Below, in pieces: positions 13,195 to 21,345 of a stretch of DNA of 54,361 nt (positions are counted from its first letter, which is position 1; every line of letters begins with the position of its first letter). Source of the stretch: Spirochaetota bacterium (GTDB lineage: Bacteria; Spirochaetota; UBA4802; UBA5550); the NCBI GenBank assembly GCA_050298055.1, contig JBNKTL010000033.1, positions 1-54,361 on the forward strand, given 5' to 3'. The notes under the pieces are model-generated. The model saw only the letters and a list, made by a program, of their open reading frames with translations. It made no database searches and was not told the origin of the DNA. The position numbers and the translations under genes were made by a program.

Positions 13195-14913
13195 ATGGGA
13201 CAATTAAGTGAAAACAGATCCCTCTTCATAAAAATTGCCGTTTATACGCTCTCATATCTCGGTGTATTTCTCCTGGCAATGATACTGTTTACGAAAAACA
13301 ATAACTTCAATGTCATCTATCATCCCGATGAACCGGGAAAGGTCTACCAGGTTAAAACCAACAGCTATAACCTTCATCATCCCCTGCTCATGCTGAACGC
13401 GACCAGGCTTTCGGTGGCCGTAACCGGGGCTGAAAAAGACCAGGATGTTGCGGAGACCGGCAGGACAGTATCGGCCTTATTCGGCGCTTTTTCAATTATT
13501 CTCATCATGATTTCACTGAACATGACATTAGGACTCCCGGCCGCGTTCTCCGCAGGTCTGCTCGCAACATTTTCTCCTCTCATCGTTCAGGCAGCCCATA
13601 TTTTCAAGGAAGATATCTCCCTGCTTTTTGGAATAACGGCTGTTATATTATCTATTTCGCTTTATGATAAATTCAGGAACAGAACAACCCTGGCATTGAC
13701 CGGTATCTCTGCGGCCCTTGCGGCTTCTTCCAAATATATCGGTTTGATTTTTTTGCCCGTGGCCCTTTTCTTTCTCCTTTCGGATAAAACCGTCAGCAAC
13801 GGCCTGACAAGAAGGAAACGCGCGCTGACAATGCTTGCCGTATTTTTTCTCGCAAGCTCTCTCCTGAACTACCAGGCATTTTATTATAAGGATTATATTT
13901 CAGAAAAATTAAGCGTTAAGCTTTCAAAAACCTTCCGGAAACCCGGTCCGGTGAAAAAGCCCCGTAAGGTCAATCTTAAAGATGAATCAACCGATATCAG
14001 TATCGCCAACACACGGCCCTTAAACCGGGCACCCGGAAACGGGAAGAAACTTTCCGGCAATAAAAACCCAAAAGACCATGACAGGGGCGGACTGGCTATT
14101 CTGACCGGCCATGGAGGCGTGGTATCCAGGAGCCCTTTGAAAGAATATATCCGGAAATATTTTAACCATACCGTTCCCGCGATTCCCGTACTGGCAATCC
14201 TTTTTTTCATTATCATGCTTATTAAAAGGAATGAAATAACAGTCCAGTTAAAAGTCATGTTTACTGTTTTCTTCATCTACTTTCTCGTAATCTCACTGGG
14301 GAAATCTACCGCGTCGAGGTATTTTATTCCCATTTCTCTCCTTACCCACGTTTTTGCCGCACTGGGGATTATTAAAATGACCGAATTGCTGGGGAAAAAA
14401 TTTAACAGGGTGCCGGTCACTCCCGTCTCTTTATTCCTCGTCTTAATTCTTATAATCCCCGCTTACTCCAGGGCCGCAAAAATGAACAGAATGTTTGACA
14501 CGTCACGGGACAACAGGAATGAAATGATCACATGGCTCGAGTCCAATATCCACAGTGAAGCGGTAATAGCCGCAGATTCTTATACGCGGCTGAAAAAGAT
14601 GGTCCGGAACATTGCTCCCGAAAAGAGGAAAAAAATAACCGTCAAAGAGATGACATATACCGGGGACCTGGAGAGTATCGGGAACGCACGGAAACTCGGT
14701 ATTACACATATTGTTGTATGCTCAAAATCTTATAATCGTTTTTTTAATAAAAACCTCGTAAGCAGCAGTAAAGCTACCGATACTGTGAGCATGCGAAGAA
14801 AATTTTACTCCGAGTTATTTAAAAATGGCTTGCTGGTATGGGAATCCCGGTATCCTGATACGGGTTCTCTTAATCCGGCGATTAAGATCTATCAACTGGA
14901 AAAAAACCAGTAA
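13195..14913 (+). CDS. ArnT/PMT-like (GT-C) lipid-carrier-dependent glycosyltransferase
   Basis: HPDE loop after TM1, HHPL, KED, SKY and RYFIP motifs; many TM helices; adjacent GT2. Confidence 0.78.
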   Translation: MGQLSENRSLFIKIAVYTLSYLGVFLLAMILFTKNNNFNVIYHPDEPGKVYQVKTNSYNLHHPLLMLNATRLSVAVTGAEKDQDVAETGRTVSALFGAFSIILIMISLNMTLGLPAAFSAGLLATFSPLIVQAAHIFKEDISLLFGITAVILSISLYDKFRNRTTLALTGISAALAASSKYIGLIFLPVALFFLLSDKTVSNGLTRRKRALTMLAVFFLASSLLNYQAFYYKDYISEKLSVKLSKTFRKPGPVKKPRKVNLKDESTDISIANTRPLNRAPGNGKKLSGNKNPKDHDRGGLAILTGHGGVVSRSPLKEYIRKYFNHTVPAIPVLAILFFIIMLIKRNEITVQLKVMFTVFFIYFLVISLGKSTASRYFIPISLLTHVFAALGIIKMTELLGKKFNRVPVTPVSLFLVLILIIPAYSRAAKMNRMFDTSRDNRNEMITWLESNIHSEAVIAADSYTRLKKMVRNIAPEKRKKITVKEMTYTGDLESIGNARKLGITHIVVCSKSYNRFFNKNLVSSSKATDTVSMRRKFYSELFKNGLLVWESRYPDTGSLNPAIKIYQLEKNQ

Positions 14914-14962
14914 CGACTCAGCTATATGACTAAAATATTCATATTTAATAAAAATGCCAATA

Positions 14963-14997
14963 GTATGTCCCCGCCGCGGTCGGCGGCGGGGACATAC
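14963..14997. repeat. Perfect 15-bp-arm palindrome GTATGTCCCCGCCGC-n5-GCGGCGGGGACATAC
   Basis: Exact inverted repeat; second copy in opposite orientation at 28611 with conserved flanks. Confidence 0.85.
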
Positions 14998-15079
14998 CAG
15001 TTGTCTTGTATTCATTAAAATGTCTATTTTAATACATAGCTGAGTAATTATAAAAAATAATTATTAGTCGAGGGAAAAC

Positions 15080-15817
15080 ATGGCAGAAAAAGAGAAAATA
15101 AAAAAAATCTCCTATATTATTCCTGTTTACAATGAGGAAGAGAATATTGAGTCCCTTTATCATGAATTAAAACCTGTAGCTGAAAAAATTGGAAAAAACT
15201 ATGAAATACTTTTCATAGATGATGCAAGTGCAGATAAGTCCCTTGCCATTATTAAAGCACTTTCAAAGAAATCAAAGAATGTCAAATATCTCTCTTTTGA
15301 AAAAAACTGCGGTCAATCAGCCGCCCTCTCCGCCGGGTTTTCACATGCAACCGGTGATGTTATTATCACCATGGACAGCGATATGCAAAACGACCCGAAG
15401 GATATTCCTGATATGCTGGGCCACTACGGCAAATATGATATGGTCAATGGATGGCGATACAACCGGAAGGACACCTTTTCAAAAAAAATCGGGAGCAAAA
15501 TCGGCAATGGTGTAAGAAATCTTTTTTTAGGCGACAATATTAAAGATACGGGATGTTCACTGAAAATTATGCGCGCTTCCCTGCTGAAACGGATAAAGAT
15601 CTTCTATGGACTCCACCGGTTTTTACCGGCACTGATGATGCTGGAGGGGGCCTCCGTAATAGAAGTTAAAGTCAATCACAGGGAAAGGATACACGGAACA
15701 TCCAATTACAGCAATCTCACACGGGCATGGCAGGCCCTTTACGACCTGATTGCAGTAAGGTGGATGATAAAGAAGCAATTAAAATTTAACATAAAGGACA
15801 AAAACATTGGAAAGTAA
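15080..15817 (+). CDS. GT2 polyprenol-phosphate glycosyltransferase (ArnC/DPM synthase-like)
   Basis: IIPVYNEEENI, DDASAD, GQSAAL, MDSDMQNDP, DTGCSLK, HRFLPAL. Confidence 0.9.
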   Translation: MAEKEKIKKISYIIPVYNEEENIESLYHELKPVAEKIGKNYEILFIDDASADKSLAIIKALSKKSKNVKYLSFEKNCGQSAALSAGFSHATGDVIITMDSDMQNDPKDIPDMLGHYGKYDMVNGWRYNRKDTFSKKIGSKIGNGVRNLFLGDNIKDTGCSLKIMRASLLKRIKIFYGLHRFLPALMMLEGASVIEVKVNHRERIHGTSNYSNLTRAWQALYDLIAVRWMIKKQLKFNIKDKNIGK

Positions 15818-16073
15818 AATAATTCTCATAATAGGTTTTGCCGGCCAGGCGGCATTTTTCATGAGATTTTTTGTACAATGGCTTTACTCGGAAAAGTACA
15901 AAAAAAGCGTCATTCCCACGGCATTCTGGTACTTCAGTCTCACAGGGAGCGTCCTCCTTTTAACCTACGCAATATTGAGAAAAGATATTGTCTTCATCGT
16001 CGGGCAATCAACCGGGTTCATTATCTATACAAGAAACCTCTATTTCATTAATAAAGAAAAGGGATATAATTAA
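15807..16073 (+). CDS. Lipid A biosynthesis N-terminal (LAB_N) domain small membrane protein
   Basis: GFAGQAAFFMRFFVQW, SVIPTAFWYFSL, DIVFIVGQ, YTRNL. Confidence 0.88.
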   Translation: MESKIILIIGFAGQAAFFMRFFVQWLYSEKYKKSVIPTAFWYFSLTGSVLLLTYAILRKDIVFIVGQSTGFIIYTRNLYFINKEKGYN

Positions 16074-16084
16074 TCCGTCAAGCG

Positions 16085-16365
16085 GAGGCCCCCCCTCCTC
16101 CCCGTTTCCGGACATTCAGAAACAGAGTCGTGTTATCTCAAAAAGCACTGTTAAAAGATGTGTAAGAAAAGGAGATCGGGGGGATGGAGAGGCCGGTCTT
16201 TCGACCTCCTGTCTCGACCGGCATTTCCCACGTCCTATGGGGCAGAGATAGGGGGATAAGAAAAGTTAATATAATTAATTTATCCCCACATCCCCTCTTT
16301 ATCCCCTTATCCCTTATTACACTCTTTTTCCTTTTCCCTCCTCTTCTTTTGTGGTCTTCGTGATA
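16085..16365. repeat. Mosaic of imperfect hairpin and short-period repeat modules
   Basis: Imperfect IR at about 16085-16110 / 16170-16195; gatagggggataag versus ttatccccacatcccctctttatccccttatccc; cttttgtggtcttcgtg resembles 5983-6010. Confidence 0.5.
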
Positions 16366-16468
16366 GATATCTTTTTTCTTTCCGAAACCGGAACGACATA
16401 AGCCTGCGGGGCAGATTTATCATTTTTAAAATATTTACCGTTAAAATCTTAAAAAAATTCACTTCCCG

Positions 16469-16500
16469 GTAACAGTTTTTACCACAGCTCTTGTTATAAT
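16469..16500 (+). promoter_or_regulatory. Candidate promoter of the barrel gene (ECF-like GTAAC...TGTT, also a perfect extended -10 TGnTATAAT)
   Basis: GTAACagtttttaccacagctcTTGTTATAAT ends 27 nt before ATG 16528. Confidence 0.5.
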
Positions 16501-16527
16501 TAATAACAACAGAAAAGGAGAAAAAAA

Positions 16528-17184
16528 ATGAGACAGTTAACAGGTCTGTTTGTCATAACATTTATTCTGGCTGCCGCCCCGGTCCTCTTTGCGGACGGTG
16601 AAGTCAAAAAGGACAAACCGAAGAAAAAGGACAACCCCCCGCACACACTTATCGGGAACAAGGATGTTACTCTTTCAGGTTACGGAGCACCGGTCTACAA
16701 GTTTTCGCCCGTGGGAGAGACCTACGGTCACTTCGTGGGAGGCCGCGGCGGTTTAATAATTGATGACATCTTTGTTATCGGCGGCGGCGGATACGGACTG
16801 GTCTATCCTGACGAACGGGAGAAGTTCTCCGGAGAAACCTACACCGGGACAGAGCCCTATGTACACATGGGTTACGGCGGAGGAATCCTTGAATTGCATT
16901 TCTTCCCCAAGAGTCTTATTCATATTTCGGCAGGTGTTCTCGTGGGAGCCGGAGGTATAACATTTGACAGCAATAATGAAGACAGTGGTAACAATAACAG
17001 GCAGGGAGACACATTTTTCGTAACGGAACCGGAAGTGAATCTCTTTGTCAATGTGACACGATTTTTCCGGATCGGCATCGGAGCATCATACAGGTATGTG
17101 TATGGAATTAACTCGGAAGAAATTTCGGACAGCGATTTCAGGGGACCTGCGGCACAGGTGATGTTTGCCTTTGGATGGTTCTAA
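16528..17184 (+). CDS. Stand-alone outer-membrane beta-barrel protein, paralog of the caspase C-terminal domain
   Basis: Signal peptide; Gly/aromatic alternating strands; C-terminal FGWF; about 85/170 identical to 19749-20261 with no gaps. Confidence 0.8.
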   Translation: MRQLTGLFVITFILAAAPVLFADGEVKKDKPKKKDNPPHTLIGNKDVTLSGYGAPVYKFSPVGETYGHFVGGRGGLIIDDIFVIGGGGYGLVYPDEREKFSGETYTGTEPYVHMGYGGGILELHFFPKSLIHISAGVLVGAGGITFDSNNEDSGNNNRQGDTFFVTEPEVNLFVNVTRFFRIGIGASYRYVYGINSEEISDSDFRGPAAQVMFAFGWF

Positions 17185-17191
17185 GGGGCAG

Positions 17192-17230
17192 GGAGACACG
17201 GGGAAAAACCCGTGTCTCCGCCTATTTTTT
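17192..17230 (+). terminator. Intrinsic terminator after the barrel gene
   Basis: ggagacacggg-gaaaaa-cccgtgtctcc (11-bp perfect stem) followed by gcctatttttt. Confidence 0.75.
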
Positions 17231-17255
17231 CAGGGGATCTTACGGAAACAAGTAA

Positions 17256-17284
17256 TTGACAGGCTCTCCAAAGAGCAGTATTTT
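17256..17284 (+). promoter_or_regulatory. sigma70-like promoter of the ECF operon
   Basis: TTGACA-17 nt-TATTTT, ending 35 nt before ATG 17320. Confidence 0.5.
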
Positions 17285-17319
17285 TTCCATAAAGATCAGC
17301 CGGGGACCGGAAAGGGCGA

Positions 17320-17805
17320 ATGGAAATAAATATCGAGGATTACTACAGAAAATACGCGCCAATGGTATTAAGAAGATGCAGGTATCTTTTAAAAAATGAG
17401 GACCGGGCAATGGATGCAATGCAGGACACATTTGTAAAACTTCTTCAGTACAGGAACAGGCTTAAAGGAGAATATCCCTCGTCTCTCCTCTACCGCATTG
17501 CCACAAACATCTGCCTTAACATAATTAAAAAAGAGAGTAAAAACCGGGAATTAAGCAGCGACACAATACTCAGCACCATAGCAGGTCTTGACAACTTTGA
17601 GAAGAGGGTATCGGACACCGACCTGCTTGAAAGGATCTTCTCCGGTGAGAAAAGCTCAACCCGGGAGATAGCAGTAATGCACTATATCGATAAGATGACA
17701 TACCACGAGATATCAGGGGAAACGGGACTCTCCGTATCAGGGATAAGAAAGAGACTTGACCGTCTGAAGAAAAAGGGAATAAGCTCTCTGGAGGCCCTCA
17801 GATGA
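17320..17805 (+). CDS. ECF RNA polymerase sigma factor
   Basis: Region 2 (AMDAMQDTF, LYRIATNICLN) and region 4 HTH (MTYHEISGETGLSVSGIRKRL); 161 aa. Confidence 0.92.
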   Translation: MEINIEDYYRKYAPMVLRRCRYLLKNEDRAMDAMQDTFVKLLQYRNRLKGEYPSSLLYRIATNICLNIIKKESKNRELSSDTILSTIAGLDNFEKRVSDTDLLERIFSGEKSSTREIAVMHYIDKMTYHEISGETGLSVSGIRKRLDRLKKKGISSLEALR

Positions 17806-18611
17806 AAAGGGACCTGTTACCGGAAATAATCCTTGAACGATACCTCCTCAATGAGCTTCCCGAAGAAAAAGCGAAAGAAATTGAGGCGTACATCCGGGAA
17901 AATCCCCGTGAAGCCGCCCGTCTTGATGAGCTCAGAGAATCAAACCGGAAGATCCTTGAAGAATATCCACCTGAAATCCGGACACCGATTATACGGGAAG
18001 CCTATGAAAGGGAAACGAAAAAGAAAGAGAGAAAATCCGCAATGGGTCTCCCCGGTTTTCTTAAAATCGCGTTTCCCGCGGGGGCCCTGGCGCTGTTTAT
18101 TTTTTCATTCTTCTTCACGGGTACAGAAGATAACATTTTAAACAGGGACATTACCAACGGGAACGGCGAGGTAACACGGATCAAAGGCCGGGAGGACAGC
18201 CTCTCCATTTTCAGGAAAACAGGCGCAGAGGTTCAGCCGCTTAAAAACGGCGATATCGTAAAGGAGAGTGACCTTCTTCAAATCGCTTACCGGGTCACCA
18301 CCGGCAGGTACGCGGTGATTCTCTCCATGGACGGCAGAGGATCCGTCACCCTTCACCTCCCCGAGAAACCGGACAGCTCCCCCAGGGTCAACCCGGGAAA
18401 GACCGTTTATCTTAAAAATTCCTATGAACTTGACGATGCCCCGGGGTTCGAAAGGTTTTTCCTCCTTGTTTCAAAGAATAAAATTAATATTGACAGCATC
18501 ATTAAGCGGGCGGAAGTATTGGCAAAAAACAGGGAGAGGGTGAGAACCGGGAAACTTGACGCGGGTAAACAGGTACGGGAAGTATCATTCATATTGAAAA
18601 AAAAGGATTAA
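17802..18611 (+). CDS. Putative anti-sigma factor: N-terminal ASD-like region, one TM helix, RIKG motif, DUF4384-like periplasmic domain
   Basis: ATGA overlap with sigma; LERYLLNEL; TM (IAFPAGALALFIFSFFF); SMDGRGSVTLHLP, SYELDDAPGFERFF. Confidence 0.75.
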   Translation: MKRDLLPEIILERYLLNELPEEKAKEIEAYIRENPREAARLDELRESNRKILEEYPPEIRTPIIREAYERETKKKERKSAMGLPGFLKIAFPAGALALFIFSFFFTGTEDNILNRDITNGNGEVTRIKGREDSLSIFRKTGAEVQPLKNGDIVKESDLLQIAYRVTTGRYAVILSMDGRGSVTLHLPEKPDSSPRVNPGKTVYLKNSYELDDAPGFERFFLLVSKNKINIDSIIKRAEVLAKNRERVRTGKLDAGKQVREVSFILKKKD

Positions 18612-18617
18612 GATGCC

Positions 18618-20261
18618 ATGAAAAGAGCAGTCACCATATCTCTTATTACACTCTTTATTCATTCTCTTTCGGGAACCTCTTTTACGGACCGGGCATGGGG
18701 AAAGGAGATAATCCACCGCTATGCCATTGTGGTGGGGGCCAATGACGGGGGGCCCGCGCGGATAAGGCTGAAATACGCGGTCTCCGATGCCGGCCAGTTT
18801 ATGAATGTTCTGAACAACCTGGGGGGGGTCCCGGAAGAGAACAGCGTACTCCTCTTTGACCCTGACGTGAGAAACTTTGCATCCGCGTTCAGGAAGATCC
18901 GGAGGAAGGTAAAGGAGAGGGAAAGCAGCAGCAGGAGAATTGAGTTCTTCTTCTATTTTTCGGGACATTCGGACGAAGAAGGGATCCTGCTGGGACGGGA
19001 AAAGCTTTCATATAAAAAGATCAAGAAATCCATCGAATATATCCCCGCGGATTTCAGGATAGCCATACTCGATTCCTGCTCATCAGGGGCCTTTACCCAG
19101 GTCAAGGGGGGAAGGAAGAGGCCTCCCTTCCTCTTCGATGAGTCGCATAACATGAAGGGGAATGCCATCCTCACATCGAGCTCCTCAGACGAAGTATCGC
19201 AGGAATCCGACAGGATAAAGGGTTCCTTTTTCACACACTACCTGGTGACCGGTCTCAGGGGAGCGGCAGACGTAACCCAGGACAGCAGAATCACCCTGAA
19301 CGAGGCGTACCAGTTCGCCTATTCCGAGACCCTTTCGCGGACGGAAAAGACCCTGAGCGGACCGCAGCACCCCAACTACAACATACAGATGACCGGAACG
19401 GGAGACGTTATTCTCACGGACATCAGGAAAGGGGCCGCAAAACTCATACTGTCAAGAAACCTCACGGGCAAATTTTTCATCAACGACCATGAGGATATCC
19501 TGGTGTCCGAATTCAGAAAAGCATACGGGAGAACAATGAGCATCGGCCTGGACAGCGGCGCCTACTCCGTTATTAACCAGAGACGCGACGGTACCTACCA
19601 GGCAAAGATCAGGCTCACGGGGAGGAGATCACAGACTCTTGCCATGGGGCATTTCTCAAAAACGGAGACCGAGACAACATATTCACGGGGAGGCCGTTCA
19701 AAAGAAGAAAAAGACAGTGTGCTGATCCCGGATTTTCACAGGCTGAAATTTTCCGGTTACGGCGCTCCCGTGGTCTCATTCGGAAAAGCCGGCAGCACAC
19801 TGGGGACCTACGTGGGGGGCAAGGGGGGACTTATTATCAACAGGCATTATGTGATTGGCGGAAGCGGTTTCGGGCTTGCCTGGCCGAACAAGAGGGAAGA
19901 AATCACCGGGGACCCCTATACGGGGGACAGACCCATAGTGGGGATGGGTTACGGGGGAGGAATGCTTGAATATATTTTTTCACCGTCAACCCTGGTAAAC
20001 GCCACAGCCGGGTTAGTGATCGGCGGAGGAGGGATTGGAGTTTCGGATACGGTGAACAGCGGCAACAGTAATGAGACCCGGAATGACACTTTTTTTATCA
20101 TTGAGCCTGATATCAACCTTTCCCTGAACGTAACCTGGTTCTTCAGGCTGAGCTTCGGCATCTCATACAGGTATGTAAACGGTATTGATACCTATGAGTT
20201 CAAGGACAGTGATTTCAGCGGGTTCAACGCAAGGATCACCCTGTCATTCGGTGTCTTTTAG
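18618..20261 (+). CDS. Exported caspase-like peptidase (C14) fused to a C-terminal outer-membrane beta-barrel
   Basis: Signal peptide; YAIVVGAN, LKYAVSDA, YFSGHS (His), ILDSCSSG (Cys), GSFFTH, QHP; barrel ending FGVF. Confidence 0.88.
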   Translation: MKRAVTISLITLFIHSLSGTSFTDRAWGKEIIHRYAIVVGANDGGPARIRLKYAVSDAGQFMNVLNNLGGVPEENSVLLFDPDVRNFASAFRKIRRKVKERESSSRRIEFFFYFSGHSDEEGILLGREKLSYKKIKKSIEYIPADFRIAILDSCSSGAFTQVKGGRKRPPFLFDESHNMKGNAILTSSSSDEVSQESDRIKGSFFTHYLVTGLRGAADVTQDSRITLNEAYQFAYSETLSRTEKTLSGPQHPNYNIQMTGTGDVILTDIRKGAAKLILSRNLTGKFFINDHEDILVSEFRKAYGRTMSIGLDSGAYSVINQRRDGTYQAKIRLTGRRSQTLAMGHFSKTETETTYSRGGRSKEEKDSVLIPDFHRLKFSGYGAPVVSFGKAGSTLGTYVGGKGGLIINRHYVIGGSGFGLAWPNKREEITGDPYTGDRPIVGMGYGGGMLEYIFSPSTLVNATAGLVIGGGGIGVSDTVNSGNSNETRNDTFFIIEPDINLSLNVTWFFRLSFGISYRYVNGIDTYEFKDSDFSGFNARITLSFGVF

Positions 20262-20264
20262 CGG

Positions 20265-20573
20265 TCAATTCACAGGGTCCCGGTACCGGAGCTCAACAAG
20301 TTCCGGCATCTCATGGGCGATGTTCCGCATCTCAACGGTTACACTGTCAATTTTATGGATAACATAATCGACCTTATCATCGATTTCACTGTCTTTTTCA
20401 GCGGGACCGGCCCTTTTTTCATTAATAATATTAATTGTTTCAAAAAAATCAAGGACATAGTTATTGAGAAGTTCGACCGATTCCCTGGTTAAATCGTAGA
20501 CCCTCTTCGATTCATCATCATTTCTCTGAAATTTTTTCAATACAAGAACTGGCTGCTGTTTTATATCAGTCAT
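20265..20573 (-). CDS. Hypothetical helical protein
   Basis: 102-aa ORF with GGGAG RBS; co-oriented with upstream minus-strand genes. Confidence 0.55.
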   Translation of the reverse strand: MTDIKQQPVLVLKKFQRNDDESKRVYDLTRESVELLNNYVLDFFETINIINEKRAGPAEKDSEIDDKVDYVIHKIDSVTVEMRNIAHEMPELVELRYRDPVN

Positions 20574-20625
20574 CTTCGGTTACTCCCGGTTTAAATACAG
20601 GATACTTCAAAAATCGTTTTTTTCA

Positions 20626-21345
20626 TCAGTCAGAGATATTTTTTTTATCATCACCTGTCTCTTCCCGTGAACCAGAACAGTCCTCCCCGTAGAGGTTTAT
20701 ATACTTCATGACCTTTGCAACAGCGTCCGGTTTCATGTTTCTTTTTGACGGGGGAAAGCTTTTTATGACCGAATCCACCCTCCCGTACACGGAACAGAAC
20801 GAGCTCTTCATCAGTCCCTGGGCCTCAACCAGTGAAAGGATGAACTGGAAGGTAAAATTATCCGGTTCACGCTCCGCGGCATGCCTGAGTATCTCCGCCG
20901 CCCCTTCCCTCCATATCCCGAATCCCCCGGACCTGAGAGGTTTCAGGGTAAAATAATCATCCATGGCCAGGAGGTAGCCGAGGACAAAGAGCTCGGCCGG
21001 TTTCATCAGGGTATAGCTCATGTCATTGGGAGAGACCCTCTTCCTGTTCGCGAGAGCAGTGATGTAGAGGACGGCATTCTTCTGTCCCCTTATGTTCCAT
21101 CCCAGGGCATTGATGACCGCGGCCTTTCTGTCCGCAGGCGCTGTCCCCAGGAGATAGCCGAGCACCTTCCCCGCGGCTTTTCTGCTCTTTCGCGCTTCCC
21201 GGACCTCCGGAATTTCCCGGTAGAGTGTATAAAAGTCCGTTGAAGTGAGAGGGGAATCGGCTGACAGTTTATCTCCCCAAAAGAGAAGGGAGATCACGAA
21301 AAGAAAAAGAAGACCTGGTCCTGTTCTGCTGCTCTTTTTTTGCAT
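20626..21345 (-). CDS. Exported hypothetical protein
   Basis: Signal peptide then DSPLTSTDF; KAAVINALGW and YLLAMDDYF. Confidence 0.65.
   Translation of the reverse strand: MQKKSSRTGPGLLFLFVISLLFWGDKLSADSPLTSTDFYTLYREIPEVREARKSRKAAGKVLGYLLGTAPADRKAAVINALGWNIRGQKNAVLYITALANRKRVSPNDMSYTLMKPAELFVLGYLLAMDDYFTLKPLRSGGFGIWREGAAEILRHAAEREPDNFTFQFILSLVEAQGLMKSSFCSVYGRVDSVIKSFPPSKRNMKPDAVAKVMKYINLYGEDCSGSREETGDDKKNISD

Follow-up and report, generated by a model that had tools for sequence, protein, structure and literature searches.

Organization of the locus

The window examined in this study comprises positions 1 to 54,361 of contig JBNKTL010000033.1 from the assembly GCA_050298055.1 of a Spirochaetota bacterium, and the system in question is a locus of four co-directional genes on its forward strand. 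These genes encode, in order, a free-standing small barrel protein, a sigma factor of the extracytoplasmic function (ECF) class, a putative membrane anti-sigma factor and a caspase homolog ending in a second barrel paralogous to the first, with the sigma and anti-sigma genes placed between the two barrel copies. With modest confidence, we consider the four genes to be an envelope signalling module in which the resemblance of the two barrels reflects shared ancestry within the locus and not a tuned match. Judged from sequence, the module's likely product and the anchor of its protease belong to one protein family.

The free barrel protein (16528-17184, +, 218 aa) was identified as an open reading frame (ORF) with a signal peptide, a Lys-rich tail carrying a DNPP motif and an eight-stranded barrel. 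The C-terminal part of this ORF is a segment of 513 nt, or 170 codons plus stop (16672-17184, +; barrel at 16672-17181). Its paralog, the C-terminal eight-stranded barrel of the caspase (19749-20261, +), was recognized by BLASTP, by ungapped alignment and by the strands at residues 378-545 of an AlphaFold2 (AF2) model. Both 513-nt segments were translated cleanly and without internal stops. The initial annotation had described two segments of this length that align without indels at about 50% identity, and the ungapped count of 85/170 identical residues agreed with its hand count; BLASTP gave 89/171 (52%, E 6e-54) with two compensating single-residue gaps. No further copies of the barrel were found in the 4.7-Mb genome, so that both of its two copies belong to this locus. 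At the nucleotide level the free and fused barrels share 277/510 positions, 27 of the 84 degenerate residues that are identical are also encoded by one and the same codon, shared codons form runs of at most 4 (a value equalled or exceeded in 45% of 10,000 shuffles), and synonymous sites were saturated (proportion of synonymous differences, pS, 0.84). The low nucleotide identity, the synonymous saturation and the unclustered shared codons therefore indicate that the pair is old. A 28-nt patch with 93% identity (16867 in the free and 19944 in the fused copy) was considered as a conversion tract and rejected, since codon sharing clustered at chance level (p about 0.45). The predicted outer loops were about half conserved between the two copies (8/17 in L2 and 7/13 in L4).

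Fold and family of the barrels

The AF2 model of the free barrel protein (pLDDT, the predicted local distance difference test score, 88.4) contained the signal helix and eight strands. The caspase model (mean pLDDT 67.7) contained the caspase domain, a beta-sandwich at residues 264-349, a low-confidence linker and a well-predicted C-terminal eight-stranded barrel at 378-545, for which block pLDDT was mostly 77-95. A Foldseek search with the free barrel matched the solved eight-stranded barrels of the OmpA transmembrane domain, NspA, the N-terminal barrel of OprF, Ail and OmpW (E 2e-5 to 4e-4, target-normalised TM-score up to 0.74); with OmpA, NspA, Ail and OmpW it shares the fold at 9-14% sequence identity. 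Both barrels are thus predicted to be eight-stranded OmpA-like outer-membrane barrels. A hydrophobic N-terminal helix, taken as the export signal, was present in both the free barrel protein and the caspase, with cleavage sites read by eye, and the two proteins end in FGWF and FGVF, respectively. The free copy had been credited with a signal peptide and a terminator of its own, and both were recovered, the former as the hydrophobic helix at residues 2-23 and the latter as an 11-bp-stem structure located at 17192-17219.

Sequence searches returned 3,627 representative relatives of the barrel at E <= 0.001, which were mostly about 200 aa long and free-standing. Among the best 150 relatives about 8 were caspase fusions, and the barrel domain nearly always ended at the last residue. 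Within this large family of small outer-membrane proteins, the free barrel is an unremarkable representative. The window barrel matched no Pfam family, PF13505 (OMP_b-brl) included at E <= 1, and no Plug domain was detected by Pfam in the free barrel; PF13505 was reached by 9 of 60 members of the barrel family (best E 1.7e-6). The ratio of nonsynonymous to synonymous substitution rates (dN/dS) between free orthologs was 0.075 for G022 versus L047 and 0.128 for the window versus L044, which indicates purifying selection; the free copy is not decaying, a point in favour of the initial annotation. The periplasmic tail of the free barrel (16528-16671) is rich in Lys and Glu and contains a DNPPxT motif that is invariant in the seven closest homologs. 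In G006 and G032 the tail is longer, at about 100 aa.

Sigma factor, anti-sigma factor and caspase

The ECF sigma factor (17320-17805, +, 161 aa) was assigned by Pfam regions 2 and 4 (Sigma70_r2, 42.3 bits against a cut-off of 24; r4_2, 26.7 against 25.7) and by TIGR02937 (64.4 bits against 42.9). The start of the anti-sigma gene (17802-18611, +, 269 aa) overlaps the sigma stop, and its product, a putative anti-sigma factor, comprises a presumed N-terminal sigma-binding region, one hydrophobic span, a TRIKG motif and a periplasmic DUF4384-like domain, a layout kept in 21 homologs. No barrel was found in the window anti-sigma factor, whose C-terminus is the DUF4384-like domain. The TRIKG motif (18171-18188) lies just outside the membrane span, and across the 21 homologs its K128 never varies, while R126 and G129 hardly do. 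A similar motif, DRIKG, is present between the two halves of the caspase at about residues 198-202 (about 19209-19223), and both motifs are candidate cleavage sites after basic residues.

The caspase part (18618-19748, +) of the 547-aa caspase-barrel protein (18618-20261) comprises a signal peptide, the Peptidase_C14 domain, the beta-sandwich and the linker. Its Pfam assignment to PF00656 scored 42.9 bits against a cut-off of 21.4, and the catalytic dyad of H117 (in SGHSD) and C154 (in DSCSSG) was invariant in 18 caspase homologs. An apparent fusion of anti-sigma factor and caspase in L029 was discarded, because unknown bases between the two coding regions (G038 contig, L029:1-1706) had created a false frame of 568 residues.

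Distribution of the module in related organisms

The gene order sigma, anti-sigma, caspase was kept in 15 of the 16 loci retrieved with the caspase and in further relatives, and extra loci were added from relatives of the same family and order. A first metagenome scan with the free barrel found no loci, and one with a 7-row alignment yielded 4. The caspases were classified into three forms by their C-termini, namely the 170-aa barrel, a segment of about 150 aa that is only weakly barrel-like, and a segment of about 380 aa with repeats. In the long form, which was seen in L005-L007, L009, L010, L012, L013, L016 and L017, about ten 16-residue GxQxxGxxN repeats lead into a conserved module some 150 aa long, and Pfam recognized no family in these long-type proteins beyond the caspase domain.

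With each organism counted once, 10 loci were of the barrel type, and 9 of these were readable upstream, since L003 starts inside the sigma gene. A free barrel stood directly before the sigma gene in 7 of the 9 (the window, G003/L011, G006, G011, G022/L046, G032 and G038), as against 0 of 15 loci with the other C-terminal types, a contrast that is descriptive and not statistical because the organisms are related. The proposal that a caspase barrel is paired with a neighbouring free barrel is therefore borne out beyond the window. Its extension, that in other loci the C-terminal domain varies yet matches the adjacent gene, was not, since in the 13 long- or short-type loci tested the retrieved flanks contained no non-caspase paralog of the locus's own C-terminal domain. 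L047 contains a free barrel, a sigma and an anti-sigma gene followed by the contig end; in the other-type locus of G039 a free barrel lies 5 kb upstream and is not adjacent; and five relatives had barrel matches and no caspase match at E <= 1e-10.

Similarity and phylogeny of free and fused barrels

The initial annotation had called the free barrel a twin of the fused one and suggested comparing each caspase C-terminal domain with its own neighbouring gene. A specific twin was not supported. The window fused barrel is 50.0% identical to its own neighbour and 51.8% and 51.2% identical to two free barrels of other organisms (P0008 and P0010). Ranked among 37, the own neighbour came 1st in G006, 1st by a hair in G011, 2nd in G003, 3rd in the window, 4th in G032 and 16th in G022. 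The G006 pair stood out with 72% identity, the next-best free barrel reaching 45.6%.

In the barrel tree, the window free barrel and the window fused barrel fell into separate clades, each well supported, and the fused barrels of G011, G022 and G032 likewise fell into well-supported clades apart from their free neighbours. In G003 (support 100/98) and in G006, by contrast, the two barrels of the pair were sisters. A tree holding all 18 fused barrels together was rejected (log-likelihood 178 lower, approximately unbiased (AU) test p 7e-11), and the fused barrels are polyphyletic as judged from these sequences, whereas a tree holding the window free and fused clades together was not rejected (AU p 0.20). 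A quick tree of the caspase domains allowed a single origin of the barrel type and grouped G003 with G011 and G022. Because the fused barrels are polyphyletic and the G003 and G006 pairs are sisters, the anchor looks to have been re-copied from, or onto, its neighbour in at least two lineages. These events were not recent, given a synonymous divergence (dS) of 1.13 for the G006 pair. Between G011 and G022 the free barrels share 61.5% identity and the fused barrels 42.6%.

Putative promoter motif and transcription units

An ECF-type promoter motif, GTAACA-N17-TGTTATAAT, is located at 16469-16500 (+), 28 nt before the free-barrel ATG. Each of the 6 four-gene loci that could be read carried the general form GTRACA-N17-TGTT(A/T)(A/T)AAT, at a distance of 21-39 nt from the free-barrel start. 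Among the 15 three-gene loci, a regular expression located the motif immediately ahead of the sigma gene in 9, and variant -35 boxes (GTAGCA, TGACA, GGACA) were seen by eye before the sigma gene in 4 more. The gap between the barrel and sigma genes of four-gene loci contained no motif; apart from the window, five such loci had a gap of 72-97 nt. The regular expression gave 25 matches over the 279,446 bases of 29 related loci, whereas shuffled sequence gave 2.5 on average and never more than 7. The strict motif had one site in the whole genome, that at 16469-16500; with one mismatch allowed there were 10 sites versus 6 for a reversed control, and therefore no wider regulon can be read from the motif. 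The lone free barrel of G009, where no caspase match was found, was not preceded by it.

ECF sigma factors commonly drive their own operon. Since such autoregulation is common and the motif is shared by free-barrel and sigma genes, the motif is most simply read as the promoter used by the sigma factor, with the free-barrel gene having been placed first behind it. The free barrel may thus be the first sigma-dependent product, and its description as induced in the initial annotation gains positional support from the same motif preceding the sigma gene in three-gene loci. In the window, the free-barrel gene is followed by an intrinsic terminator (17192-17219, +) with an 11-bp stem, 8 GC pairs and a T run, and the sigma gene is preceded by a sigma-70-like promoter candidate, TTGACA-17-TATTTT (17256-17284, +), which agrees with the consensus at 10/12 positions. 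Together, these two elements may provide separate basal expression of the sigma operon.

Several further occurrences of the motif were recorded. In L007 and L010, alone among the loci, a gene of about 790 aa with a Plug domain (TonB-receptor-like) lies directly upstream of the sigma gene, and a second copy of GTAACA-N17-TGTT (L007:1809-1841 and L010:2038-2070) stands 46-49 nt before it; here a receptor-like outer-membrane protein may take the place of the small barrel as the target of the sigma factor. The free barrel of G039 (L038:2201-2962), which lies upstream of a long-type triad, is preceded by the near-match GTGACA-N17-TGTTTAAT, and that of G026 (L037:1950-2687), on another contig, by GTAGCG-N16-TGTT; unlinked regulon members are therefore possible. 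Matches away from sigma and barrel genes were found at L012:8330-8362, about 180 nt after the caspase stop, at L015:4396-4428 (-), divergent from the sigma gene, and at L018:978-1010.

Comparison with known systems

Operons combining a sigma-70-family factor with a metacaspase have been listed for Myxococcus xanthus DK1622 and other bacteria (Asplund-Samuelsson et al. 2012, PMC3501461). The window resembles this type in that a caspase homolog and a sigma factor share one operon, an arrangement kept across several groups. The available part of that source lists the operon type only, and describes no DUF4384 anti-sigma factor, barrel anchor, free paralog, promoter or mechanism. In Dma1, as predicted for the window, an eight-stranded barrel links an ECF module to the outer membrane, and the sigma factor has been proposed to be set free by proteolysis. 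In Dma1, however, the barrel is within the anti-sigma factor itself, there is no caspase, and a free paralog as sigma target has not been described, whereas in the window the barrel is carried by a separate caspase.

In cell-surface signalling of the FecA/FecR/FecI type (PMC9249621, PMC11637429, as far as the accessible portions of these sources go), the gene of an outer-membrane protein next to the ECF sigma gene is under the control of that sigma factor, and proteases act on the anti-sigma factor. The putative target in the window differs in being an eight-stranded barrel that lacks a Plug or signalling domain, and the candidate protease is a caspase predicted to be tethered to the outer membrane; L007 and L010, with a motif copy before a Plug-domain receptor-like gene adjoining the sigma gene, come closer to this type. 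In Pseudomonas aeruginosa, SigX takes part in the transcription of oprF, which encodes an OmpA-family barrel (PMC3832394). The likeness to the window is one of regulatory arrangement, and the available part of this source includes neither a caspase nor a paralogous anchor. In Craspase, Csx29 cleaves Csx30, which binds RpoE (bioRxiv 10.1101/2022.08.17.504292; PMC10028731), and DUF4384, which is often fused to protease domains, is one type of Csx30 C-terminal domain (bioRxiv 10.1101/2022.08.17.504292). The circuit proposed below would share with Craspase a caspase-like protease that cuts a protein binding an ECF-type sigma factor, with DUF4384 at the end of some Csx30 proteins; as presented in the accessible portions of these sources, however, Craspase is cytoplasmic and RNA-guided, uses a CHAT-type protease and has no membrane components.

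In the preprint text and one partial supplement of the ECF classification paper, the word caspase is absent and DUF4384 occurs once, under ECF25. Literature searches on DUF4384 and on orthocaspase with sigma factor returned no study of the four-gene module. A barrel-anchored caspase and a free barrel paralog as promoter-proximal gene are combined in none of the systems compared here.

Proposed circuit and alternative explanations

According to the reading that we prefer, the caspase would be exported and stay attached, through its eight-stranded OmpA-like barrel, to the inner side of the outer membrane. In a barrel with an even number of strands the two termini point the same way, towards the periplasm by the OmpA convention; on the modelled structure, the caspase domain would therefore be suspended in the periplasm from the outer membrane. 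The anti-sigma factor would sit in the inner membrane with its DUF4384 domain in the periplasm and hold the ECF sigma factor, and the tethered caspase would act on its periplasmic part, perhaps by cutting at TRIKG. Cleavage would free the sigma factor, which may then read the motif and yield the free barrel as its first product; in the window the terminator and the sigma-70-like promoter would partly uncouple the barrel and sigma units. Because it stands first behind the sigma factor's own promoter type, the free barrel would be the main product of the module and not a passive neighbour. The likeness of the two barrels would stem from common ancestry in one locus, and in some lineages one copy would later have been re-copied onto the other. 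Caspase homologs are widespread in bacteria, and this locus offers a compact circuit consisting of a motif, a single likely target, an anti-sigma factor with a basic motif and a tethered protease. The paralogy of target and anchor, repeatedly renewed in some lineages, would represent either local gene duplication or a feedback device.

Several observations weigh against this interpretation. The DUF4384 match of the anti-sigma factor (23.4 bits) is below its cut-off of 27, and the anti-sigma family NF052375 scored 23 against 100. A free barrel next to the sigma gene is missing from two loci of the barrel type, L004 and L036 (G026), that of G026 being on another contig. The sigma dependence of the motif is argued from its position, and the -10 part (TGTTATAAT) could equally pass for an extended -10 box of the sigma-70 type. 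The window sigma gene has a terminator in front of it and no motif, which makes co-transcription of the window barrel and sigma genes uncertain. Finally, the co-divergence of the G003 and G006 pairs could reflect functional matching rather than mere re-copying.

This last point leads to an explanation, unlikely in our judgement, in which the induced free barrel associates or competes with the caspase barrel and feeds back on signalling through a shared ligand, a shared membrane site or mixed oligomers, with re-copying keeping the two matched. In the form given by the initial annotation, both barrels would recognize a common ligand, phage or partner, and the free one might serve as a decoy that dilutes caspase oligomers. 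It would account for free barrels being adjacent only where the anchor is of the barrel type (7/9 versus 0/15 loci), for the high identity within the G006 pair relative to its next-best free barrel, and for the sister relationship of the G003 pair even though the caspase domain of G003 groups with those of G011 and G022. The half-conserved outer loops are consistent with it, and a free barrel behind a sigma-type promoter makes a feedback loop possible. However, the window fused barrel resembles the free barrels of other organisms as much as its own neighbour, in G011, G022 and G032 the two kinds of barrel belong to separate well-supported clades, and orthologous fused barrels diverge faster than the free ones between G011 and G022. 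Solved eight-stranded barrels of the OmpA-like fold are, moreover, mostly monomers. A stronger form, which we think rather improbable, would make output and sensor paralogs on purpose, the free barrel replacing or binding the caspase tether so that the cell measures and corrects barrel occupancy. It is similarly doubtful that recurrent re-copying in G006, G003 and perhaps the window clade serves, as this form would have it, to keep the two barrels interchangeable. If true, such an arrangement would be a new trans-envelope feedback design and would give a bacterial caspase a role other than in cell death.

The opposite explanation places the free barrel outside the circuit, as a donor or relative of the anchor whose adjacency is historical and whose motif is read by another sigma factor. 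The strong terminator and the sigma-70-like promoter that separate the window units, the very large and mostly free-standing family with its few caspase fusions, the five relatives with a barrel match and no caspase match, and the resemblance of the -10 part of the motif to an extended -10 box all agree with this. We nevertheless find it quite unlikely, since in three-gene loci the motif lies directly before the sigma gene, as expected of an autoregulated ECF promoter, the strict motif is unique in the genome, unlike a housekeeping promoter, and five other four-gene loci have a barrel-sigma gap of 72-97 nt with no motif in between. A surveillance of barrel assembly was also considered, in which failed insertion of the anchor would free the protease to reach the anti-sigma factor and turn the sigma factor on, the free barrel sharing the same insertion route and modulating the response. 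Substrates of the barrel-assembly machinery typically end in an aromatic residue, as both barrels do (GWF and GVF), and the protease and its presumed substrate are predicted to lie in different membranes, which also speaks for this explanation. Inducing more outer-membrane protein under assembly stress, however, contradicts the sigma-E paradigm, and the triad also exists in the absence of this barrel, around caspases whose C-terminus is long or short; we hold this explanation to be very improbable. On balance, the module with barrels of shared ancestry remains our preferred reading.

Additional features of the window

An Rfam search over 15500-20800 gave nothing credible, its sole match being a microRNA family far below threshold. 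A pyrimidine-rich run of TCCCC-type repeats is located at 16275-16334, about 140 nt upstream of the motif, and a 33-nt stretch in the signal-peptide coding region of the caspase (18631-18663) is 82% identical to it, probably by chance. Upstream of the locus, two glycosyltransferase genes lie at 13195-15817, one for a PMT_2-type membrane enzyme of 572 aa and one for a family-2 enzyme of 245 aa; the pair looks like one for envelope glycan modification.

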